A stretch of 64,000 nt of DNA, from assembly GCA_963716745.1 (NCBI GenBank), contig OY970320.1:1152001-1216000 (forward strand), read 5' to 3'. This document shows, piece by piece, positions 8,699 through 58,339 of this stretch (positions are counted from its first letter, which is position 1; the number at the start of each line of letters is the position of its first letter). A model generated the notes under the pieces. It did not search any database, was not told the DNA's origin, and worked only from the letters and a program-made list of their open reading frames with translations. Origin of the DNA: an uncultured Gemmatimonadaceae bacterium. GTDB taxonomy: Bacteria; Gemmatimonadota; Gemmatimonadetes; Gemmatimonadales; Gemmatimonadaceae. A program made the translations under genes and the position numbers.

Positions 8699-9670
8699 AT
8701 GAAGCGGCGCCTCGGCGTCATCGGCACCTTCGTCTGGGACACGATCCACGGGCGGAACATCGCGCCGGTTCAAGAGTGGGGCGGCATCACGTATTCGCTC
8801 GCGGCGCTCGACGCTGCACTCGACGACGAGTGGGAGATCGTGCCGCTCATGAAGGTCGGGAGCGATCTCATCGTGCGCGCGCGCGAGTTCACCGCGTCGC
8901 TCCGCCACATCGCGCCGGACGCCGCGCTCATCGAGGTGCCGCAGCCGAACAATCGCGTCGAGATCGTCTATGAGTCGAGCGAGCGGCGCTGCGAGCGCCT
9001 CACCGGCGGCGTGCCGGGCTGGACGTGGCTCGGGCTCAAGCCGCTGCTCAACAACATCGACGCGCTCTACATCAATTTCCTCTCGGGGTGGGAGCTCGAC
9101 CTCGAGACCGCGCAATTGCTGCGCCAGCACTTCAAGGGTCCCATCTACTGCGACCTGCACATGCTCGTGATGGCGGTGCAGCCCGAGGGATGGCGCGCGC
9201 TGCGGCCGCTGCCGAACGTCGCCGAGTGGTGCCGCTGCTTCGACCTGCTGCAGATGAACGACGAAGAGGTGACGGCGGCGGCGCCCGACCCGATGGCGCT
9301 CGCCGCGACGGCGCTCGCGCACGGCGTGCGCTCATTGTTCGTCACGCTCGGCCCGCGAGGCGCGGTGTACTTCGCGGCGCCGGGCTTCGACCGTCTCGCC
9401 GACTTGACACGCGCGCCACGACTCGACCGTGGCGCCGCCGGCAGCGGACCCATCCGCACCGAACGCGTGGACGCGGATGCGCTGCGTCAAGAGGGAGATC
9501 CCACCGGATGCGGCGATGTGTGGGGCGCGACCTGTTTCTCCCGGCTGCTGCACGGTGATAGCTTACGCTCGTCGATCGATGCCGCGCACGCCGCGGCCGC
9601 TCGCAACGTTTCGCATCGCGGCGCCACCGGACTCACCCGTCACTTGCGCGGAGAGATCAGCTCGACATGA
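8699..9670 (+). CDS. PfkB-family carbohydrate kinase-like protein
   Basis: GGITYS, NDEE, VTLGPRGA, DPTGCGDVWGA. Confidence 0.8.
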   Translation: MKRRLGVIGTFVWDTIHGRNIAPVQEWGGITYSLAALDAALDDEWEIVPLMKVGSDLIVRAREFTASLRHIAPDAALIEVPQPNNRVEIVYESSERRCERLTGGVPGWTWLGLKPLLNNIDALYINFLSGWELDLETAQLLRQHFKGPIYCDLHMLVMAVQPEGWRALRPLPNVAEWCRCFDLLQMNDEEVTAAAPDPMALAATALAHGVRSLFVTLGPRGAVYFAAPGFDRLADLTRAPRLDRGAAGSGPIRTERVDADALRQEGDPTGCGDVWGATCFSRLLHGDSLRSSIDAAHAAAARNVSHRGATGLTRHLRGEISST

Positions 9671-10554
9671 CCGCTGTCGTCAACGTCCCGCCCTCGCTTG
9701 ATGACAAGACGTTCGAGCAAGTGCTCGAGCAGATCGCGCCGCTCGCGCCCGACGAGAAGTTCGTGCTAGATGCGCGCCACACCCGCTGGGCCAGTCCGTA
9801 CGGACTCACCGCGTTGCTGACGCTCGCGCAATCGCGCGCCGCGCGCTCCGAGTTCATCCCGCCCGAAGCGGAAGAGACCGCGGGCTACTGGGCGCGCACT
9901 GGATTCTTTCAGCACGCTTCCGAGCTCTACGACTTCGTGGGCAAAGTGCCGCGCGCGCGCGGCGGCGAGAGCAGCGTGCTGCTCGAGATCACGCCGATCG
10001 CGAAGAGCGACGACGTGCACGAGGTGGTGGGCCGCATCCAGCAGAAAGCCACGCAGATCCTCGTGAAGGAACTCAACGTCGATCCCAAGGCGACGATGGG
10101 ATTCGCGATGACGCTGAGCGAAGCGTGCCAGAACATCGTGGAGCACGCGGGGCGCGGCGGCTGGGTGGCGGTGCAGACCTACACGTGGAAGAAGCGGCTG
10201 CAGGGACGCCGCGTCGTGGTGATCGCGGTGTGCGATGCCGGCGTCGGATTCCGGCAGTCGCTCGAGAGCGCGCACGGCCGGCGCCTTGACGAACGGTGGG
10301 GCGATGGCCGCGCGCTCGAGGAAGCGGTGCTCCGCGGCGTTTCCCGGTTCCAGGATCCGGGCCGCGGTCAAGGCCTCGCGGGCGTGCGACGTTACATTGG
10401 AAGGTGGCAGGGGAAGTTGTCCGTTCGTTCCGGAACCGCTAGAATCGCTATCGTGCCTTCCTGGGATGAGGACGTGCCGCTCGAAGAGAAGCTCCCGAAT
10501 TTCCCGGGCGCCCAGATCCAGATCACCATCCCCGAGCACGTGGCGGATCGATGA
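9667..10554 (+). CDS. STAS-like + HATPase_c (anti-sigma kinase-like) protein
   Basis: N-term VLDARHTRWASPYGL; GHKL boxes LSEACQNIVEH, DAGVGF, GRGQGL. Confidence 0.75.
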   Translation: MTAVVNVPPSLDDKTFEQVLEQIAPLAPDEKFVLDARHTRWASPYGLTALLTLAQSRAARSEFIPPEAEETAGYWARTGFFQHASELYDFVGKVPRARGGESSVLLEITPIAKSDDVHEVVGRIQQKATQILVKELNVDPKATMGFAMTLSEACQNIVEHAGRGGWVAVQTYTWKKRLQGRRVVVIAVCDAGVGFRQSLESAHGRRLDERWGDGRALEEAVLRGVSRFQDPGRGQGLAGVRRYIGRWQGKLSVRSGTARIAIVPSWDEDVPLEEKLPNFPGAQIQITIPEHVADR

Positions 10555-11419: not shown

Positions 11420-11431
11420 GCCGCGAGCCTC

Positions 11432-12591
11432 ATGCCCACCTCTGAATCCCGACCCGGCCTCTCGACGCTCGCCTTGCACGGCGCGCGCGAGTCGCGCGAC
11501 GCCGACACGCCGATCGTCTCGCCGCTCTATCAGTCGGTCAACTTCATCCAGGAAGTCGGCACCGGCGACGGGCTGCGCTATCCGCGCTACGGCAACAATC
11601 CGACGGCCGAACTCGTGCAGCGCCGCCTCGCGCTGCTCGAAGGCGCGGAGGCCGGCCTCGTACTCGGCAGCGGCCAGGGCGCCACCGCGTGCGCGCTGCT
11701 CGCCCTGCTCCGCCCCGGCGATCACCTGCTGGCGAGCAAGTGGATCTACGGCGGCACGCACAAGCTGCTCACGCGCGAGTTCGAGGCGATGGGCATCAGC
11801 GTCACACTCGTCGATCCGCTCGAGTCGCGCGGCTGGCGCAAGAAGCTCCGCAAGCACACGCGCGCGGTGTTCGTCGAGACGCCGGTGAACCCGAGCTGCC
11901 GCGTGCTCGACCTGCGGCCGATCAGCTACCTCACGCAGGAGACTGGCCTCACGCTCGTCGTGGACTCCACCTTCGCGTCGCCGATCAACATCCGTCCGCT
12001 CGAGCACGGCGCCGACGTCGTCATCCACTCGGCCACGAAGTATCTCAACGGCCATCACGACATCCTCGGCGGCGCGGTGATGGGCACCAGCGACTACATT
12101 GAGGAAGTGCGGCAGAAGATGATCCTCTGGGGCCAGGCGCCCGACCCGTTCGCGTGCTGGCTGCTCGAGCGCGGACTCAAGACGCTCGAGGTGCGCGTGC
12201 AGCGGCAGAACGAGAACGCGATGAAGGTCGCGCAGTGGTGCGCCGGCCAGAAGGCGTTCACGGCGGTGCATTACCCCGGGCTCGAATCGCATCCCGATCA
12301 TGCGATCGCGCGCGAGCAGATGCGATGGCTTCGGCGGCATGCTCGCCGTGGAAGTGAAAGGCGGCGGGGCGGCGGCGGAGCACATTCCTGCGCCGCCTGC
12401 AGATCTTCGCGCACGCGACGAGCCTGGGCGGCGTGGACTCGCTCGTGTGCGAGCCGCGCTTCACGTCGCACGCGCACATGACGCCCGCCGAGCGCGCGGC
12501 CATCGGCATCCCCGACGGCTTCGTGCGCATCTCCGTGGGCATCGAGAACGCCGCCGATCTCATCGCCGATCTCAAGCAGGCGATCCGCTGA
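11432..12591 (+). CDS. PLP-dependent Cys/Met metabolism enzyme (cystathionine gamma-synthase/lyase family), frameshifts near 12325 and 12385
   Basis: YPRYGNNPT, ETPVNP, VDSTFASP, HSATKYLNGHHD, SLGGVDSL, RISVGIE. Confidence 0.9.
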
Positions 12592-15346: not shown

Positions 15347-16226
15347 GCGAAGCGCCGCTCGGCGCGCATTGCAGCACCGCGGGCGGCGGCACGACCACCG
15401 CGCCGCCCCGCGCCAAACTCATCAAGGCCACCGCGCTGCAGCTGTTCACGAAGGCCGCGAGTCGCTGGCAGGAGCGCGAGTGCGACGCCGCCGAGATCAC
15501 GGAGTTCAAAGCGCAGCTCGCGCTCACCGATGTGCGCGTCACCATGGCGCACGATTCGTATCTCATCAATCTCGCGAGCCCCGACAAGACGCTTCGGCGC
15601 CGAGCACCGAGAGCTTCGTTGCGGAATTGCGGCGGTGCGAACAACTCGGCCTCACCTATCTCGTGAGTCACCCGGGCAATTTCATGGACGATCGCGCGAG
15701 CGGGCTCGCGCGCAACGCCGACGCGATCGCGGAGGCGCTCGAACGCGCGCCGGGCCGCACGGTGCTCTGCCTGGAGACGACCGCCGGCAGCGGCACCGCG
15801 CTCGGCGCCACCTTCGAGGAGCTGGCCGCGATCATCGCGCGGCTCCCCAAGGCTCAGCAGAAACGCGTTGGTGTGTGCGTCGACAGCTGTCACGTCTACT
15901 CGGCGGGCTACGATCTCGTGAAGGATTACGACGGCGTGTGGGCGCGCTTCGACGACGTGCTCGGACTTTCGCGCCTGCGCACCATGCACCTGAACGACTC
16001 CAAGACCCCGTTCGCCAGCCGCCGCGACCGTCACGAGCTGATCGGCGAGGGGTCGCTGGGGAAGAGGCCATTCCAACGGATCATGACTGATCCGCGTTTA
16101 GCGGGTGTCGCGAAGGTGATCGAGACGCCGAAGGGCGATGATCACGCGAAAGCCGACGGGAAGATGCTGAGGAGGCTTCGGGGGTATGCGCGCGGGCGCA
16201 GCTTCGAGTCGGTAGAGCAGACCTAG
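15343..16226 (+). CDS. nfo: Endonuclease IV, frameshift near 15600
   Basis: LGAHCSTAGG, HDSYLINLAS, HPG, LETTAGSG, DSCH, HLNDSK, DRHELIGEG, IETP. Confidence 0.93.
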
Positions 16227-16302
16227 ACGCTAGACCTAGACGTTAGACTACTCCCGCAGCCGCAGTTTTATGCTAACGTCTAGGTCTAGCGTCTAGGTCT
16301 GC
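16217..16302. repeat. CTAGAC-type palindrome (perfect 30-bp arms)
   Basis: gcagacctagacgctagacctagacgttag 16217-16246 / reverse complement 16273-16302. Confidence 0.95.
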
Positions 16303-16306
16303 AGTT

Positions 16307-16334
16307 TTGACACGGGCTCTCCCAGCGCTACCTT
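16307..16334 (+). promoter_or_regulatory. Sigma70-type promoter, probably leaderless start
   Basis: TTGACA (16307-16312), 16 nt, TACCTT (16329-16334), 6 nt, ATG at 16341. Confidence 0.65.
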
Positions 16335-16340
16335 GAAAAC

Positions 16341-16694
16341 ATGCCTCGCGTGAGACCCCGACGCCTAAGAGTACTCTCAGCCGTACTGATCGCCGCGACC
16401 CAGTTCGCGGTCGTCGGGTTCGGGCCGCTCGTCGATGGCATCCAGGGTGCGAGTGCGCCGGCGCACGTCGAAGAGTTCGGCATCCATCTCCACTATTCGC
16501 ACGATCCCGACAATTGCGCCGCGTGTGCCGCGTCGCACATGGTCGGCGACTCGCCCCGCGTGCCGACGCCCGCGCTCCTGCTGGCGCCGCAGCGCGATGG
16601 GATCGCGATCGCGCTCGTCGTTCCCGCCGTACATCGCGCCGGCACTCCCAAGTCTCCGCGCGCGCCTCCCCGCTCCGCCGCCGCCGCTCGCTGA
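16341..16694 (+). CDS. DUF2946/CruR-like leader protein 1 (CxxC + RAPP)
   Basis: Basic then hydrophobic N-terminus, HVEEFGIHLHYSHDPDNCAAC, SPRAPP near C-term; directly upstream of a TonB-dependent receptor. Confidence 0.8.
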   Translation: MPRVRPRRLRVLSAVLIAATQFAVVGFGPLVDGIQGASAPAHVEEFGIHLHYSHDPDNCAACAASHMVGDSPRVPTPALLLAPQRDGIAIALVVPAVHRAGTPKSPRAPPRSAAAAR

Positions 16695-16839
16695 ATCCAG
16701 CTGAGCGCCACTGACAATTGATCGCGCGCTCGCTGTGGCCCTTTTGGGGCTCCGCTCGGCGCATCCCAATCTCGGTCTTTCGGCGGAGCCGCATTCGCGT
16801 GCGCCTCCGGGGGACTCGCACATATGCCCGGAGCGATCC

Positions 16840-19202
16840 ATGTCCAGCAGAACACTCGAACGCGTCCGTCAGCTCGCCGGCCTCGCCGCGTGCCTGGCGT
16901 TCGCACTCTTCGTCCCCTCGACCGCGCATGCCGCCGTCGATCCCGATAACTCCGATGTGAGCGGCACCGTCACCGATTCCGCCACCGGCCAATCGCTGCA
17001 AGGCGCGCAGATCAGCATCCTCGACGGCCAGCAGCAGGTCGTGTCCCGCGTGCTCGCCGACGCATTCGGACGGTTCGTGATCCACAACGTGAAGCCCGGG
17101 CAGTATCTCCGTCCTGGTGCGCTTGATCGGCTTTCGCCCGGAGGACCGCCCGATCGAGTTGAAGGACGGAAGGAACGTCTCGCTCTCGTTTAAGCTGGCC
17201 GCAGTCGCCGTCACGTTGCAGTCGATCTCCGTGGCGACTGCCGTGCCGATCACCATCGACACGCGCAGCGGCGTGCAGGTCTTCCAGCAGGATGAGTACC
17301 ACGGCTCGCCCACGAACACGACGTCGCAGATCCTGCAGCAAGCGATCACCGGCGCGGCACGCGCGCCCACGGGAGAGGTGCATATCCGCGGGCAACACGC
17401 GGAATACACCTACTACCTCGACGGCATTCCCGTGTACCCCGGGATCTCCGGCAGCCTCAATGAACTGTTCGATCCGTCCATCGTCGATCGCATCTCGTTC
17501 ATCACCGGCGGCTGGGACGCAGAATACGGCAATCGCAACACCGCGATCGTGAACGTCGCCACGCGCGTTCCTGTCGGCGCATTCCACATGGGCGCGTCCG
17601 CCTATGGCGGGATCGTACAACAGCAATGGTCAGACGTTCGACCTGAGCAGCAGCAATGGCACATGGGGATTCTTCGGCGCCGCGACGCGGCAGGTCACGG
17701 ACATGCGGCAGTATCCCGTGGCGTTCGACACGAGCCAGCTTCAAACCATTCAACTACAGCAATCACGGCGAAGATCTCTTCGGCTTCGGCAAGATCGAAT
17801 ACTCGCCCGGCGACGCGGGATCAGCTGTACCTCGAGGGGAACGCGTCCACCACCACCTTTCAGATCCCGTTCGACTCATCCACCGGCATCATCGACGACC
17901 ATCAGAACGACAAGAACAGTTTCCTGAACTTCGGGTGGCACCACCTCACCGGCTCGCCGCAAGCGGGACCGGATCGAACCCGGCGGCGAAATGTTCACCG
18001 GACTCTTCTACCGGAAGGGGTCGCTCCTCTACACACCGGGCGAGAACGACGATCCTTCATTCATGTTCTTCCCCGATACGACGCCGTACAACCTTCACGA
18101 GGATCGCAATTTCCAGAGCTACGGCCTCACGGCGAGCTATGCCTGGCGCACCGGTCACATGTTCTCGTTCAAGGTCGGTGCGCTCGTCTCGCAGACGACC
18201 GGCCACGAATCGTTCACCTCGGTGGATTCTCTCGGGAACGCCGGGCCGGCGTCGAATGCCGATCTCAACGGCAGCGATGTGGATGGCTACGCGCAGACGG
18301 TGATCGCGCCGTCGGAGTGGCTCGATTTTCACCTCGGCGTTGCGATACGACAACCACGCGGCGCCATTCGCCGGCCACCAATCCCAGTGGAGCCCGCGCG
18401 TGCGCGTCAATTTCTATCCCAGCGCGGGCAGCACGATCTATCTCTACTACGGCCGGCTCTTCATGCCGACCAACGTGGAGGACCTGCGAACCATCACGAG
18501 CGTCGCCGACTCGGGCGTCGTCACCGCGCCAACGCTGCCCGAGCGCAATGATTTCTACGAGATCGGCTACGTGCAACGCGTCGCGATTCGGCGTGCTCAA
18601 GTTCTCCGGCTACCACAAGCAGAGCACTCCCGGGATCGACGACCAGACCGTGCCCGGCTCCGCGATCGTCACATCGGTGAATCTCGCGTCGGTGCACATC
18701 ACGGGCCTCGAAGCTACGTTCGAGGTCCGGCCCGCCGGACCGTGGTCAGGGCTACGTGAACTTCTCGATCAATCATGCATACGGTCGCGGCCCGATCACC
18801 GGGGGCTTCTTCCCGGTGGACTCCACCGGCGTGCCGGGCAACTGGTTCGATCTCGACCACGACCAGCGGATCTCGTCCGTAGCTTCGGTCGTGTATTCGG
18901 GAAAGCGCTGGTTCGCCAGCGCATCGGGAACGTACGGCACCGGGCTCACGAACGGCGCCGAGATCACGCAGCCGATCGGCACCGGGTTCTTCGATTTCAA
19001 CCGCGACATCCACGTCGCGCCGAACTTCATCACGACGCTGAGCGCCGGTTATACCTGGCTCTTCGGCAAGACCGTACTGCGCCCGGTGCTCTACATCGAC
19101 AACGTCTTCAACTCGCAATATCTCCTCAAGGGGCAATTCTTCAGCGGCGCTTCGGCAGGACGGCCGCGCACCGTGCAACTGCAGGTGTCGGTGAATCTGT
19201 AA
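16840..19202 (+). CDS. TonB-dependent receptor with N-terminal carboxypeptidase-regulatory-like domain, multiple frameshifts
   Basis: Signal peptide, VSGTVTDSATG, plug HIRGQHAEYTYYLDG..ITGGWDAEYG, SPRVRV, DHDQR, DNVFN, GRPRTVQLQVSVNL. Confidence 0.88.
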
Positions 19203-19228
19203 CGAACGGGCCGGCTGGCGCGTTTTAC

Positions 19229-19311
19229 CTACAGACTGAGACGTTAGACTTAGACGTTAGAAGGCTACGACTCCCGCATTCTAAGTCTCAGTCTAAAGTC
19301 TCAGTCTGTAG
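19229..19311. repeat. Variant TAGAC/GAGAC palindrome
   Basis: ctacagactgagacgttagacttagacgttagaa ... ttctaagtctcagtctaaagtctcagtctgtag. Confidence 0.85.
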
Positions 19312-19315
19312 TGTT

Positions 19316-19344
19316 TTGCCAACCCGGAACCAGCCAGGTAGCTT
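19316..19344 (+). promoter_or_regulatory. Sigma70-type promoter, probably leaderless start
   Basis: TTGCCA (19316-19321), 17 nt, TAGCTT (19339-19344), 6 nt, ATG at 19351. Confidence 0.65.
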
Positions 19345-19350
19345 GATAGT

Positions 19351-19720
19351 ATGAAGCCCATGAATCCGCCGCCGCCGATCCCGACTCCGCGTCCTCGCCG
19401 CCGCCCTCGTGGCGGCGTCGCAGTTCGCGGTGTCGGCGTTCGCGCCGATGGCGGATTCCGGGGCCGGCAACAGCGCGCCGTCGCACGTCGAGGCGTTCGG
19501 CGTGAGCCTGCATTTCGCGCACAATCCCGACGATTGCGCGGCGTGCCTGGCGCAGTCGATCATCGGCATCACGTCGCACGGGTCGGCGACGATCGTCGCC
19601 CAGGACGCCGCGACATCCGAGTTCGACGCGGCCGCGCCTGCGGCCGCCACGCGCATCGCCTGGAGTCCCGGCGCTCCGCGCGCACCTCCCGCCCCGCTCC
19701 GCGCGCGCCTCAGCAGCTGA
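19351..19720 (+). CDS. DUF2946/CruR-like leader protein 2 (CxxC + RAPP), probable 1-nt insertion near 19363
   Basis: RRRRSRLRVLAAALVAASQFAV..APSHVEAFGVSLHFAHNPDDCAAC..APRAPP; paralog of 16341..16694. Confidence 0.78.
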
Positions 19721-19824
19721 TCTGAGCGCGCCCGCCGGCCATCGTGCCGGCGCCAAGCCGACCGCACGCCGCACCGCCGCCGCGATAGTCGCGGCCGCAC
19801 GGCGCGCGCCGACATCACGGAGAC

Positions 19825-21244
19825 ATGCGCATTCCATCGATCACTCGCCGCGGCTTGGGGCCTCATCGCCCTTCCGCTCGCGGCTCAGCAGTCCGACTCC
19901 ATCGCCCGCGCCTTGCACGTCGCGGACTCGATCGCGCGTTGGCGCGCCGATTCCGCGAACGTCGCCAAGGAGCGTCAGCGCATCATGCACGAGCCGCGCG
20001 CGCACCCGCCGGCTCCGCTGCCGCCACCGCCGATCCGCCTCACGAAACAGCAGGCGATCGACAGCGCGCTCGCGCACAATCCCACGATCGTGATCGCGCG
20101 CGAACAGGTCGCGCAGGCGAACGCGCGCGTCACGCAGGCCACCGCCTTCCCCGACCCCACGCTCGGCTTCACGGTGCAAGGCGTCGGGCGCGCGATCAAT
20201 CCGCACCCCGCATTCGAGACCGACATCATCGCCGGCTTCACGATCCCCTTCCCGCAGAAGTTCTGGCTCCACGGGCAGGCGGCCGACGGTGACGTCGGGA
20301 ATCTCGAGGCGGCCTACCGCACGCAGCGCGCAGGTGATCGCCACGGAAACGGCGCAGGCCTACGACTCGCTGCTCGTCTCGCTGAAGCACCGCGACGATC
20401 TGCTGCTCGCGCGCGCACTCTCGCAGGATTTCCTCAAGAAGACGCAGGCCCGCTTCAACGCGGGCACCACCGCGCGACTCGACGTCGTGAAGGCGCAGGT
20501 CGGCGTCGCGCAGAGTGGAGAACGATCTCATCGCGAACGAGCGCGGCGTCGCGCAACGCGCGCGCCGCGCTCAACCGGCTGCATCGGCCGCATCCTCGGC
20601 GCGGGCATCGACGCGGTGGACACGCTCGCGATCGTGCCCGTTCCCGAGGACTACGACCGGCTCCAGCAGGTCGCGATGGAGCATCGCCCCGAGCTCGCCG
20701 GCATCGAGCGCCAGATCGCGGCGGCGCACTCCGCCGAGAAGCTCGCGCAGCAGTACTACTTTCCCGACCTCAACGTGAGCTTCCAGCACAACGATCCGTA
20801 CGGCGTGCCCGGGCCTGCCCGTCATGAGTTGGACCAGCGGCGTCGGCATCAGCGTCCCGCTGCTCTTCTGGCAGCACCAGAACGGCGAGGTCGCCGAGGC
20901 GAAGCATCTCGAGCTCGAGCTCGCCGCCACGCAGCGCGACGTGTTCGCGCAGGTGGAGCAGGACCTCCGCAACGCGTACTCCACCGCCACCACGAGCTAC
21001 CGGCAGGCGGTGTTCATTCGCGATGAGCTGCTGCCGTCCGCGCAGGAGCAATACGACATCGCATTCAAGACGTACAGTCTGGGCGGCGCGAGCTGCGCTC
21101 GAAGTGATCGACTCGCAGAACGCCTTGCTCGACGCGAAGAACCAGTTCGCTACCGCGCTCGGCGCGCTGAATGATGCCGTCGCCGACCTGCAGCGCGCCG
21201 TCGGTGCGCCGCTCGACACCATGCCTTCGGACACCCGCCAATGA
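19825..21244 (+). CDS. TolC/CzcC-family outer membrane efflux protein, multiple frameshifts
   Basis: QAIDSALAHNP, RFNAGTTARLDVVKAQV, EHRPEL, GISVPLLFWQHQNGEV, LEVIDSQ. Confidence 0.85.
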
Positions 21245-22414
21245 GTGATCACATCATGCGGCACGCCGCGCGCGTCATCCTCCTCGCGGCCATCGCCGGC
21301 GCGGCCGCCTGCTCGGCGAAGAACGAGCGCGGCGAACGGCGCCGGCCGACAGCAGCCGCGCCGGACGCAGCGCGCCGCTGACGCTCTCGCCCGACCAGCG
21401 CGAGCACCTGACGCATGGTCCCCGTGACCATGGAGAGCTATCGTCCCACGATCGCAGACCACGGGCACCGTGGCATTCGACGGCGAACATCTCCACGCAG
21501 GTGCTCGCGCCGATCTCCGGACCGGTGCTGCGGCTGCTCGTGGAGGTCGGCGCGTCAGGTGAACCGCGGCGATCCGCTCGCGCTGCTCTCGTCGCCCGAC
21601 TTCGCCGCGGCGGTGTCCGCGTACCGCAAGGCGCAGGCGGCGGCGCTGCAGACGAAGCGCGTCGCCGATCTCAACGCCGAGCTCTTCAAGGCCGATGGGA
21701 TCGCGAAGCGCGACCTCGAGCAGAGTCGAGGAGGACGCCGAAGCCGCCGCAGTCGGACCGCGACGCCGCGCTCCAGCAGCTGCGCGCGCTCGGCGTGGAC
21801 TCGGTCACGATCGCCGCGCTGCAGGATCCGAAGAAGAGCGTGCCGGTACAGGCGTACATTCGCGCGCCGATCGCCGGCACCGTGGTGGAGAAGCTGATCA
21901 CGCCGGGCCAACTGCTGCAGGCGGGCACGACGCCGTGCTTCACCGTGGCCGATCTGTCGCGCATGTGGGTGCTCGCGAACGTATTCGAGTCGGACCTCGC
22001 GTTCGTCTCGCCGGGGGACAAGGCGCAGATCACCGGCGCGGCGCTGCCGCATCCGCTCACGGGCGTCGCGATCTACGTCGCGGCGCTGGTGGATCCCTCG
22101 ACGCGCGCCACCAGCGTGCGCATCGAGGTGCCCAACACGGGGCGCGTGCTGCGGAAGGACATGTACGTCGAAGCGGCGATCCAGTCGTCGCGCACGATCA
22201 AGGGGATGCTCATTCCCGTCTCGGCGGTGCTGCGCGATGACAACAACCTGCCCTTCGTGTTCGTGGAGAGCGACCGAAGGGCACGTTCTCCCGCCGCGTG
22301 GTCACGCTGGGCAACAGGCTCGGCGACCGCTACGAGGTGAAAGACGGCCTCAAGGAAGGCGAACAGGTGACGGCGGAGGGCGGGCTCTTCCTCGAGTTCG
22401 CGCAGGGCCAGTGA
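21241..22414 (+). CDS. RND efflux periplasmic adaptor (CzcB/CusB-like), multiple frameshifts
   Basis: Lipoprotein-like GAAAC, APISG, RAPIAGTVVE, VADLSRMWVLANVFESDL, VDPSTR, IPVSAV. Confidence 0.87.
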
Positions 22415-25400
22415 GCCGGCCGGAAGTACCGAAGGATCGCGCCGCTCACACGGCGAGCTTCGTCAACTACCTCGTGGCGGCGGCGGTCGACCAATGGCCG
22501 ATCGTCGCCTTCCTCGCGCTGCTGTTCGTCGGCGTCGGCATCTGGTCGTTCCTGCGCCTGCCGGTGGACGCGTATCCCGACCTGTCGCCGCCGATGGTCG
22601 AGATCATGACGCAATGGCCGGGCCACGCCGCCGAGGAAGTCGAGCAGCTCATCACCGCGCCCATCGAACTCTCGATGAACGGCGTCCCGAATCTCAAGGT
22701 GATGCGCTCGATCTCGCTCTACGGCCTCTCCGATGTGACGCTCACCTTCCGCGACAACACCGACGATTACTTCGCGCGGCAGCGCGTGTTCGAGCGGCTG
22801 CCCGACGTCGCAGCTGCCAGAGGGGATCACGCCGAGTGTGTCGCCGCTCTTCTCGCCGTCGGGGCTCGTGTACCGCTACGTGATCGAGAGCAAGGACCGG
22901 AGCGCGATGGAGCTCAAGAACATCCAGGACTGGGTGCTCGAGCGCCAATACCGCTCCGTGCCCGGCGTGGCCGACATGAGCTCGCTCGGCGGCGAGACGA
23001 TGCAGTACCAGGTCGTGATCGATCCGGTGCGGCTCGCCGGCCGCGGACTCACGGTGCCCGCCGTCGCCGCCGCGCTCTCCGCGAACAACAGCAATGCGGG
23101 CGGCGGGTTCTACTCCGAAGGCGGCCAGTTCTACTACGTGCGCGGGCTCGGCCGCATGGCGACCACCGAGGACATCGGGCGCACCGTGGTGGCCGTGAGC
23201 AACGGCACGCCCGTGCTCGTGAGAGACATCGGCGAGGTGGTGATCGGCGCGGCGCCGCGACTCGGGACAGTTCGGCTTCGACAGCGTGAACGACGCCGTC
23301 GAGGGCGTGATCCTCATGACGCGCGGCGAGCAGGCACAGGTCGTGCTGAAGAAGGTGCAGGCCAAGACGACCGAGTTGAACGACTCGCTCTTGCCGAAGG
23401 ACGTGCACATTCGCCCCTACTACGACCGCAGCGAACTGATCGCACTCACCACACGCACGGTGGAAGACAACTTGCTGCGCGGCATCATCTTCGTGCTCGT
23501 CGTACTGATGTTCTTCCTGTACGACGTGCGGTCGGGGCTGATCGTGGCCACGACGATCCCGCTCTCGCTGCTCTTCGCCTTCATCTGCCTCGATCTGCGG
23601 CACGTGCCGGCCAATCTCCTCTCCATCGGCGCGATCGACTTCGGCATCATCGTCGACGGGGCCGTCGTCATGGTGGAGAACATATTCCGCCAGCTTTCCG
23701 CACGGCGTGAGGAAAAAGACGTGAGCGTGCGTGAAGTCATCATCGCCGCCGCCGCGGAGGTGGACCGGCCCGATCCTGTATGCGGTGGCGGTGATCATCG
23801 CGGGATTCCTGCCCATCTACGTGCTCGCGGGCCCGTCGGGCACGCTGTTCCGCCCGATGGCCGATACGACGATCTTCGCGTTGATCGGCTCGCTCCTCCT
23901 CACGCTCACGCTGCTGCCCGTGCTCTGCTTCTTCGTGCTCGGCGGCCATGCGCGCGAGCGGCACAATCCGGGCTTCGAGTGGATCAAGCGGCACTACACG
24001 CGCGGCCTCGACTGGTCGATGCGAGTACCCATGGCGCGTGATCGGCGGTTCTACGCTGCTGCTCGGCGTCGCGCTGGCGCTCATCCCGTTCATCGGCGCG
24101 GAGTTCATGCCCAAGCTCGACGAGGGCGCACTCTGGGTGCGTTCCACGATGCCGTACACGATCTCCTTCGAGGAATCGTCGCGCATCGTGCCGCAGATCC
24201 GCGCGGTGCTGCGCTCGTTCCCGATGGTCACCGTCGTGGCGGATGAGCACGGCCGTCCCGACGACGGCACCGACGCCACCGGTTTCTTCAATGCCGAGTT
24301 CTACGTTGGGCTCAAGCCCTACAACGAATGGACGGGACCGATCCGCACGAAGGCGCAGCTCATCGACAGCGTGGACAAGCGCCTCGCCTCGTTCACCGGC
24401 ATCACGTTCAACTATACGCAGCCCGCCGAGGATGCGGTGAACGAGGCCGAGACCGGTCTGAAGAGTTCGCTCGACGTGAAGGTGTTCGGCACCGATCTGG
24501 AGCTGCTCGAGAAGAAGGGGAACGAGATCAAGAAGGTGATCGAGGCGGTGCCGGGGATCACGCACGTGACCGTGGTGGAGGAACTGGGCCAGCCGAGTCT
24601 CACGATCAGCATCGATCGCGCGAAGACGTCGCGGTACGGCATCAACGTGGACGACGTGAACGGACTCGTGGAAGCGGCGGTGGGCGGCAGCGCGGCCACG
24701 ACCATCGTGCAGGGCGAACGGCGGTTCGATCTCGTGGTGCGTCTCAAGCCCGAGTCGCGCCGCACGCCGGAGGAGATCGGGCACATCCTGGTCGCGGCGC
24801 CCGGCGGACAGCAGATCCCGCTGCGCGAACTGGCCGACGTGCGCGTGAACAACGGTGCGTCGTTCATCTACCGTCAGGACAATTCGCGTTTCATCGGCAT
24901 CCAGTACTCGGTGGAGGGCCGCGATCTCGCGAGCGCCGTGCAGGAAGCGCAGAAGGCCGTGGCCGCGAAAGTGCGCGTGCCGCCCGGCTATCGCGTGCGC
25001 TGGGGCGGCGAGTACGAGGATTACACCGCGTCGCGCGACCAGCTGCAGTTCGTGCTGCCGGTCACGATCGTGCTCATCTTCCTCATCCTCTTCTCTCTGT
25101 ACAACAATTTCAAATTCCCCTGGATCACCGTGGTCGGCGTGGTGCTCTCGGGGCCGATCGGCGGGATCTTCACGCTCTGGCTCACCGGCACGCCGTTCTC
25201 GGCGAGTTCGGGTATCGGATTCCTCGCGTTGTTCGGCGTGTCCGTGCAGACGGCCGTCGTGTACATCTCCTATGTGAACGAGTTGCGGCGCGATGGCATG
25301 GACATCGTGCGCGCCACGCATGAGGCTGCGCTGCTGCGGCTGCGGCCGATCATGATGACGGCGCTCGTCGCCGCACTCGGCCTGCTGCCCGCCGCACTCT

Positions 25401-25543
25401 CCACCGGCGTCGGGAGCGATTCGCAGCGGCCCTTCGCGCTCGTGATCGTGGGCGGATTGTTCTCACGGCTCCTGATCAGTGTGTTCCTCATGCCGTCGCT
25501 CTATGTGGTGGTCGCGAAGGAGGGCGACCGCCTCGAGGTCTGA
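22411..25543 (+). CDS. CusA/CzcA-family heavy-metal RND transporter, several frameshifts
   Basis: LPVDAYPDLS, AEEVEQLIT, RSISLYGLS, GAIDFGIIVDGAVVMVEN, EFMPKLDEG, RLRPIMMTALVAALG. Confidence 0.92.
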
Positions 25544-32191: not shown

Positions 32192-32341
32192 ATTCCTGCT
32201 GGAGAAACGAATGGCGACGTTGGACGTTAGCCTGCGTGGAACGTAAGAGTGGGGCTGGGACGACATTCGTCGTGACCAGCCCCACTCTCCGCTTCCACGC
32301 CCTCCAACGTCCAACGTCGCCGTTCGTTGGTCCAGCAGGAA
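32192..32341. repeat. Long imperfect intergenic hairpin with CCAACGT heptamers
   Basis: ttcctgctgg/ccagcaggaa, ggcgacgttggacgtt/aacgtccaacgtcgcc, agagtggggctgg/ccagccccactct. Confidence 0.8.
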
Positions 32342-32396
32342 GTCCCGACTCCTCTCCACTCGCTACTCGCCGTCCCAGCGTGCATCTTCCCTCGCA

Positions 32397-34644
32397 ATGA
32401 ATTCCCTGCAATCCCGCCTCTCCCCCGCCCTGGCCGGCCGCTACACGCTCGACCGTGAGCTCGGCGAAGGCGGAATGGCCATCGTGTACCTCGCGCACGA
32501 CGTGCGCCACGATCGCCAGGTCGCGGTCAAAGTGCTCCGCCCGGAGATCTCCGCCGAGATCGGCGCCGAGCGATTCCTGCGCGAGATCAAGATGGCCGCC
32601 GGACTCACGCACCCGCACATCCTCCCGGTGTTCGACTCCGGCGAAGCCGATGGGCTGCTCTTCTACGTGATGCCGAGCATGGAAGGGCGTTCGCTGCGCG
32701 AGCGCCTCGACAAGGAGCGCCAGCTGCAGCTTGAGCGACGCCCTCCGCCTCACGCGTGAGGTTGCGTCCGCACTCGATTACGCGCACCGGCACAACGTGA
32801 TGCACCGCGACATCAAGCCCGAGAACATTCTGCTGCATGAGGGCGCGGCCATGGTCGCCGACTTCGGCATCGGCAAGGCGCTCTCCGGCGAAGGCCGCTC
32901 GATCACGCAGACCGGTCTCGCGATCGGCACGCCCGCGTACATGAGCCCCGAACAATCTGCCGGCGAACTCGGCACCGATGGCCGAAGCGATCTCTATTCC
33001 CTCGGCTGCGTGCTGTACGAGATGCTCACCGGCGAGCCGCCCTTCACCGGCGTCACGCCGCAGGCGATCATCGCGAAGCGCTTCGTGTCGCCCATCCCGA
33101 GCGTGCGCACCACGCGCGATGTGCCCGAGGCGGTGGACGCCGCGGTCACCCGCGCCCTCGCGCGCACACCGGTGGACCGCTATCCCACTGCCGCCGATTT
33201 CGCCGAAGCGCTGCGCACCATCGGCCGCGACGGCACGGGTCCGCAGCGCGCCGCCACCGAGTCGAACAAGGCCGCCCCGAAGGCGATCGCCGTGCTCCCC
33301 TTCAAGAACATGAGCGCCGATCCGGAGAACGAGTATTTCTCCGACGGCATGACCGAGGAGATCATCAACGCCCTCGGGAAATTGCCCGGCATCCACGTGG
33401 CGTCGCGCACCAGTTCCTTCGCCTTCAAGGGGAAGGAGGTGGACGTGCGTCAGATCGGCGAGAAGCTGGGCGTCGCCTCGGTGCTCGAGGGCAGCGTGCG
33501 CAAGATCGGCAACAAGATCCGCCTCACGGCACAACTGATCAGCGTCGACAGCGGCTATCACATCTGGAGCGAGACGTTCGATCGCCAGCTCGAGGATGTG
33601 TTCGCCGTGCAGGACGAGATCTCGCGCGCCATCGTCGATGCGCTCAAGCTCCGGCTCGCGGGCGACGAGGCACAGGTCCTTGCGCCCACGAAGAATCTCG
33701 AAGCGTACACGCTCTACCTGAAAGGACGCTTCTTCTTCGCCAAACTCTCCGAGCCCGCGCTGCGCCGCTCGCTCGATCTCTTCCAACAGGCGCTGCTGCA
33801 GGATCCCGCGCTCGCCCGCGCCTACGCCGGCATCGCCGATGCGTGGTGCAATCTCGCCGACGATTGGGTCGCGCCCGACGACGCGTATCCGCGCGCGAAA
33901 GGCGCCGCCGAACGCGCGCTGCAGCGCGAGCCCGAGCTCGCGGAAGCGATCACATCGCTCGGCAAGGTGCTCGGTTGGCACGAATGGAAGTTCGCCGAGG
34001 CGGAGACGCAGCTCGCGCGCGCGGTGGCGCTGAGCCCCAACTACGCGGAAGCGCACTACGTGCACGCCACGCTGCTCCCCTCCGTCGGCCGGCTGCACGA
34101 CGGGATCGAGACGATGCGCAAGGCGCTGCTGCTTGATCCGCTCTCGGTGCATTACAGCGAATGGCTCACGCGCTTCCTGCTGTTCGATCGCGACTATGAT
34201 GCCGCCATCGTGCACGGTCTTCGCACGATCGACATGGATGAGATCTGTCATCGCGCGCAGCACTACATCGGCTCCGCGCACCTCGCGCTCGGCGACGCCA
34301 AAGAGGCGCTCAACTGGTACCGGCGCGCGCAGTCGCTCGAGCGCGCGCCGCGCTCGTGGGACGCGCTGATCGTGCGCGCCCTCGCCGCGCTCGGCCAGCG
34401 CGAGGAGGCGGACGCGATCCTCAAGCGGCTGGAAGAGGAGGGGAAACATCAGTACCTGCGCGCCGAGATCATCGCGACTGGTTACGCCGCCGTCGGCGAT
34501 CTGGACGGCGCATTCGCATCGCTCGAGCGCGCGTACCAGTCGCGCTCGGCGGGATTGCTCTATCTCCATCTCGATCCGGGATACGAGCCGTTGCGGAAGG
34601 ATCCGCGGTACGCGGATCTCGTCAAACGGATCGGAGTGCGCTGA
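32397..34644 (+). CDS. Hanks-type Ser/Thr kinase with TolB-like and TPR domains, frameshift near 32730
   Basis: LGEGGMA, VAVK, HRDIKPEN, DFG, GTPAYMSPE; IAVLPFKNMS..YFSDGMTEE; TPR-like repeats. Confidence 0.92.
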
Positions 34645-37203: not shown

Positions 37204-37281
37204 CAGACCTAGACGTTAGACCTAGACGCTAGAATGCGTCCGTAGCTGTCTTCTAGCGTCTAGGTCTAGCGTCTAGGTCTG
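37204..37281. repeat. CTAGAC-type palindrome
   Basis: 31-bp arms 37204-37234 / 37251-37281, one mismatch. Confidence 0.93.
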
Positions 37282-37296
37282 CTGTTAAGTTGAAGC

Positions 37297-48723: not shown

Positions 48724-48795
48724 TGAATGCTTTCGATGGCCGAACTATTCACCGGACCCGAGGGCGCGTCTAGGCCCTACTAGCGAAAAACAAAC

Positions 48796-48870
48796 TTGAC
48801 AGGATCGACAGGATTGACACTGATGGAACGGCTCACGCGGCCCATCATCTCAATCCTGTCAATCCTGTCA
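48796..48870. repeat. 9-nt-unit palindrome (GACAGGATT)
   Basis: tgacaggatcgacaggattgacactgatgg ... ccatcatctcaatcctgtcaatcctgtca. Confidence 0.85.
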
Positions 48871-48901
48871 GGTAGTTCTGTTGTTGAACTGCCGAGTCAG
48901 G

Positions 48902-49447
48902 TTACGCCGCGACAGCCGCCTTCTGCCGCACCGCCTCGAACTCGAGATCGATGTCGATCGTGTCTCCCACGGCGAAGCCGCCCGCCTCGAGCAGCATGTT
49001 CCAGTGGAGCCCGAACTCCTTGCGGTCGATCTGCGTCTTGGCCGAGAAGCCGGCGCGGTCGTTGCCTTGCATATCCACGATCATCCCCTCGAGCTCGGCA
49101 TCGAGCACCACCGGGCGCGTGGTGCCGCGGATCGTGAGCTCGCCGACGACCCGGTAGCCATCGCCGTGGCGGTCGATGCGCGAGCTCCGGAAGGTCATCA
49201 CTGGGAAGTTCGCGGCATCGAAGAAATCGGGCGACTTGAGGTGCGCGTCGCGCTGCGGCTCGTTGGTGTTGATGCTGTTGACGTCGATCTCCACCTCGGC
49301 GCGGGACTGGGCCGGATCCTGTTCATTGAACTCGAACATCCCCGTCCACTTGGTGAAGTGCCCGCGCACCTTGGAGACCATCATGTGGCGGACGCTGAAC
49401 CCGATGTTCGCGTGCGCCGTGTCGAATTGCCATTGCGTGTTGGACAT
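48902..49447 (-). CDS. YceI family protein
   Basis: WQFDTAH, FSVRHMMVSKVRG, RDAHLKSPDFFD, GELTIRG. Confidence 0.93.
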   Translation of the reverse strand: MSNTQWQFDTAHANIGFSVRHMMVSKVRGHFTKWTGMFEFNEQDPAQSRAEVEIDVNSINTNEPQRDAHLKSPDFFDAANFPVMTFRSSRIDRHGDGYRVVGELTIRGTTRPVVLDAELEGMIVDMQGNDRAGFSAKTQIDRKEFGLHWNMLLEAGGFAVGDTIDIDLEFEAVRQKAAVAA

Positions 49448-58251: not shown

Positions 58252-58253
58252 GA

Positions 58254-58339
58254 ACTGCAGACCTAGACGCTAGACCTAGACGCTAGAAGGCGAAGGGCGT
58301 CGCGTTCTAACGTCTAGGTCTAGCGTCCAGCTCTGCAGT
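58254..58339. repeat. CTAGAC-type palindrome
   Basis: actgcagacctagacgctagacctagacgctagaa ... ttctaacgtctaggtctagcgtccagctctgcagt. Confidence 0.9.

Follow-up and report, generated by a model that had tools for sequence, protein, structure and literature searches.

The 64,000-nucleotide stretch analysed here (the window; contig OY970320.1 of an uncultured Gemmatimonadaceae bacterium) comes from a closed, one-contig genome of 3.29 Mb with 67% G+C. On its forward strand lie two small open reading frames, leaders A and B, each of which stands at the head of metal-transport-type genes. Leader A (16341–16694, +; 117 amino acids, intact frame) consists of a predicted signal-anchor helix, the residues H42, E44, G47, H51, H54, C59 and C62, a variable linker of 44 residues, the motif RAPP and a tail; its CxxC is at 16515–16526 (+) and its RAPP at 16659–16670 (+), 7 residues before the stop. 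Leader B (19351–19720, +, with an ATG at 19351 and the conserved frame at 19364–19720) has CxxC at 19535–19546 (+) and RAPP at 19679–19690 (+), 9 residues before the stop. An intergenic region of 145 nucleotides (16695–16839, +) separates leader A from the gene of a TonB-dependent receptor (16840–19202, +), whose orthologue in G003, a genome of the window's genus, shows CarboxypepD_reg, Plug and barrel domains. After leader B, 104 intergenic nucleotides (19721–19824, +) are followed by genes for a TolC/OEP-family outer-membrane factor (19825–21244, +), an RND_mfp membrane-fusion protein (MFP) closest to CzcB/NccB (21226–22411, +) and a CusA/CzcA-family heavy-metal RND pump (22540–25543, +). 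All four of these larger genes are frame-broken in this assembly. The closest named relative is a metagenome-assembled genome of an uncultured Gemmatimonadaceae bacterium, the leader of which is 95% identical.

BLASTP aligns A and B with 27 identities in 50 positions (E 5e-20), and tblastn finds no other copy in the genome. Both leaders share a basic and then hydrophobic N-terminus, the block SAP.HVE.FG..LH..H.PD.CAAC, in which the CxxC variant is CAAC, and a C-terminal PRAPP. Their linkers between CxxC and RAPP have no mutual sequence similarity, and the gap is 44 residues in both, with the second Cys 45 codons before the Arg. A preliminary description of this DNA had proposed two paralogous frames of about 120 amino acids with a common N-terminus, CxxC block and RAPP; it had given the same 45-codon distance, the same two RAPP sites and the same downstream genes, a TonB receptor after A and TolC-MFP-CusA/CzcA after B. 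All of this is borne out. Of the two start positions it named, 16341 stands, the frame being intact, but 19351 does not in this assembly: the ATG there is out of the conserved frame, which a TGA at 19361 shuts just upstream.

A C-terminal CxxC-(42–47)-RAPP pattern is found in 3 of the 28,855 six-frame open frames of at least 60 residues, and two of the three are A and B. The third (48784–49134, +) is an Arg-rich off-frame reading opposite another gene, lacks anchor and His block, and was rejected as a chance match. RAPP at any position occurs 28 times in the 2,101 coding-like frames of the genome, which is within the range of 12 permutations (20–48), and not one of these 28 lies within 10 residues of the frame end. 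A chance origin of the paired CxxC/RAPP pattern in the leaders is excluded.

The leaders belong to a large family. Our first alignment (A1) holds 22 leaders: the window pair, 12 from genomes of the same genus or family and 8 database proteins, with one row from the unpublished genome G012. Its profile matches 518 of 1.84 billion cluster representatives at E≤1e-3 and 264 at E≤1e-10; the best 150 of the 518 make up a second alignment (A2). E44, G47, H54, C59, C62 and RAPP are invariant in A1. In A2 the invariant residues are H54, C59, C62, R107, P109 and P110; at least 90% of the sequences keep Q21, H42, E44, G47, H51 and A108, and mean column identity is just 13%. Q21 (window 16401–16403), kept at that same level in the 150 sequences, is a glutamine mid-way in the hydrophobic anchor helix. 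CxxC together with RxPP is present in 148 of the best 150, the two exceptions having unrelated C-termini. The motif is RAPP in 141, RGPP in 3, RSPP in 2 and RPPP in 2; the tail after it spans 1–9 residues and is 3 residues long in 89.

The spacer between the two motifs is 44 residues in 21 of the 22 A1 leaders and 43 in the remaining one. Among the 148 A2 members with both motifs it is 44 in 125, 43 in 10, 45 in 11, 46 in one and 47 in one. When copy B of G003 is compared with leader B of the window, two compensating indels of 10 residues leave the length of the linker unchanged. To judge by these alignments, the sequence of the linker varies freely and its length is fixed. The AlphaFold2 model made with A2 has a helix at residues 7–35 (pLDDT 82–97) and is mostly coil elsewhere (mean pLDDT 75, pTM 0.37), so that residues 7–35 are predicted to be a transmembrane signal-anchor helix and would provide the N-terminal export signal. 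In a sample of 301 Gemmatimonadota genomes, matches at E≤1e-5 occur in 52, which belong without exception to two families of a single order (37 of 71 genomes in family f1 and 14 of 125 in family f2); no match was found in the 104 genomes searched from ten other Gemmatimonadota families.

Most relatives of A and B likewise stand at the head of transporter operons. We surveyed 40 Gemmatimonadota loci with 41 leaders by tblastn, using annotated proteins of G003, G004 and G005. The operon after the leader is OEP-MFP-RND in 23 of the 41, a porin-like protein of about 450 amino acids followed by ZnuA-(ATPase)-ABC-3 permease in 12, and a TonB receptor in 3, one of them weak; the remaining 3 have none of the queried genes. 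According to Pfam, an OEP gene is directly downstream in 21 of 28 loci. In a set of 50 leaders, all 47 with a recognised neighbour immediately precede a transporter operon on their own strand. In G003, the genes after copy B encode the porin-like protein, ZnuA (PF01297, E 2e-53), an ATPase of ABC type and a permease of the ABC-3 family (E 8e-50); the intergenic region of leader B is conserved there in front of this porin-ZnuABC operon.

The hallmarks published for DUF2946 proteins are CXXC and RAPP, 45 residues apart in Bp2923, together with an export signal, and their genes are described as operon-first with long intergenic regions (PMC9426467). A and B have the CXXC, the C-terminal RAPP, the spacing, the anchor, the operon-first position and a long intergenic region. 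From the motifs, their spacing and conservation, the operon position and the cargo families we infer, with a probability of roughly 0.7, that A and B are leader peptides of the CruR/CutF type, which act in cis by metal-responsive arrest of translation, and that their family is a large and divergent clade in Gemmatimonadales, sister to DUF2946 and below the Pfam cut-off. The kind as such is already known, and the preliminary description named it correctly. The CruR/CutF-type features it listed are present, the homologs conserve CxxC, RAPP and a spacing of 43–47 residues (148 of 150 with both motifs), and relatives head RND, Znu-like or TonB operons in 38 of 41 cases. It also said that the locus has no metalloregulator or two-component gene, and indeed there is no regulator gene between nfo and rpiB in the window. 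The sole Fur-family gene of the genome is 1.8 Mb away. Some 6 kb upstream of the locus, an open reading frame (9562–10551, +) encodes an ATPase fragment of histidine-kinase type, with no response regulator among the reading frames scanned.

We picture the leaders as working in the following way. Each would be translated from a leaderless transcript beginning at its own ATG, and the signal-anchor would direct the nascent chain to the membrane. If the published paradigms apply, the ribosome would arrest when the two Pro codons of RAPP occupy its P and A sites. A stretch of 44 residues would roughly span the exit tunnel with a few residues to spare; the linker would therefore occupy the tunnel at arrest, and the His/Glu/His/His/Cys/Cys block (H42–C62) would be just outside it, or in the translocon. 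Occupancy of this block by metal would alter the duration of the arrest: metal-dependent folding or retention at this place could change the tension on the nascent chain; force-profile work on co-translational zinc-finger folding is the background to this idea. The stalled ribosome would cover the last codons of the leader and the 5′ edge of the intergenic region of 104–145 nucleotides and would in this way set downstream expression: it might keep Rho away, on the CruR model, or expose the ribosome-binding site of the next gene, on the CutF model.

The start regions fit leaderless translation. Neither A nor B has a Shine-Dalgarno sequence before its ATG. A promoter-like TTGACA-16 nt-TACCTT (16307–16334, +) ends 6 nucleotides before the ATG of leader A, and TTGCCA-17 nt-TAGCTT (19316–19344, +) ends 6 nucleotides before the ATG at 19351, which fits two separate transcription units in the window; a scan of 16100–20000 for consensus sigma-70 promoters returned none. 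We counted TAnnnT by regular expression with controls, excluding two leaders whose start was not callable. TAnnnT ends 5–10 nucleotides before the start in 35 of 48 family leaders, compared with 2.1 expected from shuffles and with a rate of 6% among 893 long frames taken at their first ATG. Of the 48, 2 have a motif resembling a Shine-Dalgarno sequence, compared with 18% of controls. Because a −10-like TAnnnT adjoins the start and Shine-Dalgarno motifs are rare, the sequences suggest that leader mRNAs are leaderless and start at the leader start codon.

Near-identical leaders are found with different cargo. A maximum-likelihood tree built from 50 leaders does not sort them into cargo classes, and its starred branches force at least four changes each for the RND and ZNU labels and two for TBDR, the TonB-dependent receptor. 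The exporter-type leader of G016 and the importer-type leader of G072 are sisters (99/91), and the importer-type copy B of G003 is sister to the exporter-type B copies of G000, G004 and G005 (96/84). In both sister pairs the DNA can be aligned through the intergenic region, the start codon and the first 20–35 codons of the next gene, and then exporter and importer diverge. Within the window's genus, the A and B copies group in a single clade (97/93), which makes copy A, the one that heads a TonB receptor, a duplicate at genus level. TonB receptors also follow the leaders of a second, deep clade, and in G098 a twin arrangement has arisen independently (leader-OEP-MFP-RND-leader-TBDR). For the porin-like protein of about 450 residues (G003, L020 6532–7893) Pfam gives no family, with weak hints of BBP2 and Porin_O_P. 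Its N-terminal 60–142 residues align with the TolC-family protein of the sister species (window 19825–20050; tblastn E about 1e-9), which places the cassette exchange point inside the first gene. No ZnuA-family gene was found in the window genome or in 5 of 5 exporter-type genomes tested, at completeness of 76–99%, which leaves its absence unproven; of 5 genomes of importer type, just 2 have a TIGR00914-grade pump. Exporter and importer cargo appear to be alternatives to one another. Comparison by eye of exporter- and importer-type leaders revealed no class-specific residues near RAPP, and the sequences speak against a leader sequence class that would fix "import off, export on". The sign of the response may depend on small differences in the peptide or on a further regulator; alternatively, exporters and importers may share one sign.

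Regarding the metal, the motif DFGIIVDGAVVMVEN of the window pump fits DFGX3DGAX3VEN, which is described as the signature of HME1/HME2 pumps (PMC3637150), and the RND orthologue in G005 scores 871.5 bits on TIGR00914 (cut-off 701). Because of the motif and the above-cut-off match we place the RND protein among the HME1/2 divalent-cation pumps of CzcA/CzrA/NczA type. The ABC importer of the relatives could carry zinc or manganese; in NCBIfam its proteins match best the zinc proteins AztC (117 bits, cut-off 350), AztA (199.5, cut-off 220) and AztB (101, cut-off 280), all below the cut-offs. Since the cargo families are HME1/2-type RND and Znu/Azt-like importers, the metal sensed is more likely to be zinc or another divalent cation than copper.

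Several results weigh against the reading of A and B as arrest leaders of a DUF2946 sister clade that respond to a zinc-like metal. On PF11162, the DUF2946 profile (cut-off 23.7 bits), A reaches 10.1 bits (E 1.4) and B gives no match, and a six-frame search of the genome with PF11162 yields nothing at either locus. NCBIfam assigns no family to the two leaders. Kinship with DUF2946 does show in A2, where 110 of the 150 members match PF11162 at E≤1 (6 of them at E≤1e-4), and in the ESM Atlas: the nearest clusters there are from Gemmatimonadota, and DUF2946 is annotated on 11% of the members of one cluster. A2 also has weak matches to DUF6153 (37 of 150 at E≤1, best E 1.4e-6). For the ZnuA-like protein the next NCBIfam match after the zinc protein AztC is the manganese protein MntC. 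Binding proteins of the ZnuA family may carry manganese or iron as well, and CxxC is a classic Cu(I) motif, so that copper keeps some probability. Near-identical cassettes of leader and intergenic region stand before an exporter and an importer, which a single regulatory sign does not explain. The intergenic regions themselves fold no more stably than shuffled sequence (z −0.11 and +0.27), and alignments of five close relatives, in which RNAalifold has little power, show little covariation. When a stalled ribosome is modelled, Shine-Dalgarno accessibility rises modestly, from 0.16 to 0.34 after B and from 0.25 to 0.30 after A, in a model for which 9 of 47 loci had no callable start. The bias of C over G around RAPP is 0.37 in A and 0.26 in B, with the genome 99th percentile at 0.32, and is partly forced by the Pro, Ala and Arg codons. 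A peak of C over G at RAPP would suit a Rho site as in cruR. In leader B, a CUCCG 18–22 nucleotides past the Arg codon is able to base-pair with the CGGAG of the ribosome-binding site of the OEP gene. These are weak hints as to how arrest might act on the next gene. Three points of the preliminary description suffer from these data: the HMM search that it proposed as a check does not place the leaders in DUF2946 proper, its two-arm logic of import and export, which implies opposite signs, is unproven and too simple for near-identical cassettes preceding both, and copper, the metal of its CruR comparison, is probably wrong in view of the HME1/2-type pump and the ZnuABC/AztABC-like importers of the relatives.

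Other explanations differ in the metal or in the mode of action. If A and B were copper-specific CruR orthologues, A would shut off a copper-importing TonB receptor in the presence of copper and B would turn on a copper exporter. CxxC, RAPP and spacing do match the copper sensor CruR, and CutF, and a leader followed by a TonB receptor is the canonical CruR arrangement. The pump in the window nevertheless bears the HME1/2 motif, which we take to contrast with a CusA-type motif, and the 12 Znu/Azt-like operons among the 41 do not suit a copper-specific system. In all 41 operons, queried for OEP, MFP, RND, TBDR, porin-like, ZnuA/B/C and nfo with copper families not searched explicitly, there is no room for typical copper genes directly after the leader. 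The conserved His and Glu ligands are additional to DUF2946 as described in print. We therefore consider a copper-specific pair unlikely. Another reading is a function chiefly in trans: the small proteins would be anchored in the membrane and serve the transporters from the periplasm as metal-binding accessories or chaperones, and RAPP would be a pause with no regulatory role. Such a function would account for the conserved putative ligands, the signal anchor and the shared operons with transporters, and CutF was originally proposed to be a chaperone (PMC9426467). On the other hand, the stretch from CxxC to RAPP, free in sequence, fixed in length and modelled as coil, behaves like a ruler and unlike a folded domain. 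Of 150 members, 141 retain RAPP, at 1–9 residues from the end, and C-terminal RAPP is otherwise absent from the coding-like frames of the genome. An action mainly in trans is, in our opinion, very improbable.

Finally, the locus could be decaying, with leader B and all four cargo genes being pseudogenes and nothing regulated here. The conserved frame of leader B has no in-frame ATG (those at 19351 and 19360 are in another frame); alignment of the TonB receptor with the G003 orthologue runs through frames 1, 2, 3, 1, 2, 3, with at least five frame changes; and OEP, MFP and RND align in several pieces and frames. The break in leader B comes down to one extra base near 19366–19368 relative to orthologues: those of G002, G003, G004 and G005 have one base fewer in the CCGCCG run, so that the ATG reads into ...RRRSRLRVL.... 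The base at 19368 is missing also from short-read contigs of two public runs, about 91% alike. Compared with 16200–21200, public soil and rhizosphere contigs, from runs that cover small shares of the stretch (0.05–0.14) and include no listed RNA run, lack single bases at 18338, 18752, 19368, 19843, 20332, 20517 and 20815–20825; the base at 19843 is missing in three runs with contigs about 98% alike. Similar breaks occur beyond the locus. The codon-position G+C track changes phase frequently over about 8–25.5 kb of the window, and a Cys/Met pyridoxal-phosphate enzyme (11420–12478 / 12358–12588), a Ser/Thr kinase (32247–32756 / 32671–34641) and the single Fur gene (genome 2933728–2934085) are all split. 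The completeness of the assembly is 89.8% despite a closed one-contig genome. The receptor is intact in G004 and G005 (829 and 824 amino acids) and the RND pump in G005 (1040 amino acids). Since relatives are intact, breaks extend beyond the locus and public contigs lack the extra bases, the breaks in the TonB receptor and TolC-MFP-RND genes are probably assembly indels, and we find decay of the locus quite unlikely. Frame changes without a stop are seen also in the ftsX/envC region and in nfo, few-contig relatives have likewise low completeness (63–83%), and a pattern of many frame changes is typical of uncorrected long-read indels.

Two other features of the surroundings deserve a comment. 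The gene of the zinc-dependent endonuclease IV, nfo (window 15358–16190), is directly upstream of the leader in many genera, whatever the cargo (RND, Znu-like or TonB), which means that the chromosomal site of the leader is conserved while the cargo changes. A palindromic hairpin of TAGAC units lies between nfo and leader A (about 16211–16310, hairpin 16217–16302, with 30-nucleotide arms that are 100% complementary), and a second copy with TAGAC/GAGAC lies at about 19223–19320 (hairpin 19229–19311, 27-nucleotide arms, 93% complementary). As operators or parts of the module these hairpins were rejected: they are copies of a repeat that is scattered over the genome at 60 loci, four within the window (the other two at 37204–37283 and 58253–58339), and there is none before copy B of G003. 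They are often followed by a short T run and look like repetitive extragenic palindromes or terminators.

The arrest-leader reading allows a wider and more tentative proposal. Gemmatimonadales may, as one possibility we would not yet favour, use leaderless RAPP arrest peptides responsive to zinc or other divalent metals in place of metal-sensing transcription factors, with a portable cassette of leader, intergenic region and first codons being re-plugged among Czc-type exporters, porin-ZnuABC importers and TonB receptors. If this is true, it is not the cargo that decides the sign of the response, and the strict 44-residue linker is a molecular ruler that places the metal site at the exit of the tunnel or translocon. 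Metal-responsive arrest peptides are so far experimentally supported for copper only, through CruR and CutF. A large sister family invisible to Pfam would carry the sensing of metals by nascent chains further, to zinc-type homeostasis and to a soil phylum that has been little studied; it is distinctive in its extended His/Glu/Cys ligand set and in its place before Czc-type exporters and Znu-like importers. One cassette in front of importers and exporters is a natural experiment on how the output sign of an arrest peptide is encoded, and a sequence-free spacer of invariant length offers a clean test of pulling-force and ruler models. Such leaders escape annotation and surveys based on DUF2946.

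Among known systems, CruR (Bp2923 of Bordetella pertussis) is similar to A and B in being a small exported protein that heads an operon and has CXXC, a C-terminal RAPP, a fixed spacer (45 residues there, 44 here) and a long intergenic region, and as with leader A a TonB-dependent transporter is downstream (PMC9426467). A transmembrane helix followed mostly by coil is described for Bp2923 in the same paper and predicted here by AlphaFold2. Arrest of CruR at RAPP has been demonstrated in vitro (PMC12992588). In contrast to CruR, the family of the window has the additional conserved block H-x-E-x2-G-x3-H-x2-H, and its leaders are probably on leaderless mRNAs. The cargo of DUF2946 proteins is given as TonB transporters, PepSY_TM, ScoC, PCuAC, YcnI, CopC and others (PMC9426467), whereas most relatives of A and B head Czc-type RND exporters or Znu-like importers and not copper genes. 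The host phylum, Gemmatimonadota, is also different and is unnamed in the main text and three supplementary files of PMC9426467, which likewise contain no mention of zinc, OEP or ZnuA. The main text of PMC12992588 does not mention an efflux pump, RND, TolC or an ABC transporter. In the literature searched, figures and some supplements being outside the search, no paper ties a RAPP leader to an efflux pump or to zinc.

CutF of Rhodobacter capsulatus is the exporter-side paradigm of leader-peptide control: stalling at its Pro-rich C-terminus in the presence of metal is reported to unmask the downstream ribosome-binding site of a detoxification gene (10.1101/2025.02.05.636593). By this analogy CutF could be a model for leader B switching on an exporter. 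CutF differs in having CxxxC and PPP with a multicopper oxidase as cargo, where the window has CxxC and RAPP with TolC-MFP-RND, and no significant stem-loop masking a ribosome-binding site was found in the intergenic regions of the window. Similarity extends to ApdA/ApdP and to SLIV_16130 of Streptomyces lividans: in these peptides RAPP is likewise C-terminal, the N-terminus carries a localisation signal, and the reading frame lies ahead of the gene that it regulates (PMC12992588). SLIV_16130 has in addition conserved Cys and His and a metal-related downstream gene, and the spacing of its H58-x2-H61-x4-C66 resembles H51-x2-H54-x4-C59 here. Unlike the cargo of A and B, that of ApdA/ApdP and SLIV_16130 is Sec/YidC or copper-related (PMC12992588). 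The DUF6153 matches and the SLIV_16130-like H-x2-H-x4-C spacing hint at a wider superfamily of His/Cys RAPP leaders.

CC2720/CCNA_02805 of Caulobacter crescentus differs from the window leaders in being proteobacterial and recognised by Pfam, and a role in arrest is not addressed in the papers that describe it (PMC4176598, PMC3637150). According to these papers it is an open reading frame with a DUF2946 domain that is co-transcribed with the Cd/Zn HME-RND operon czrCBA, with the promoter upstream of the small reading frame and no regulator gene nearby. Compared by description, it appears to be the closest precedent for leader B.

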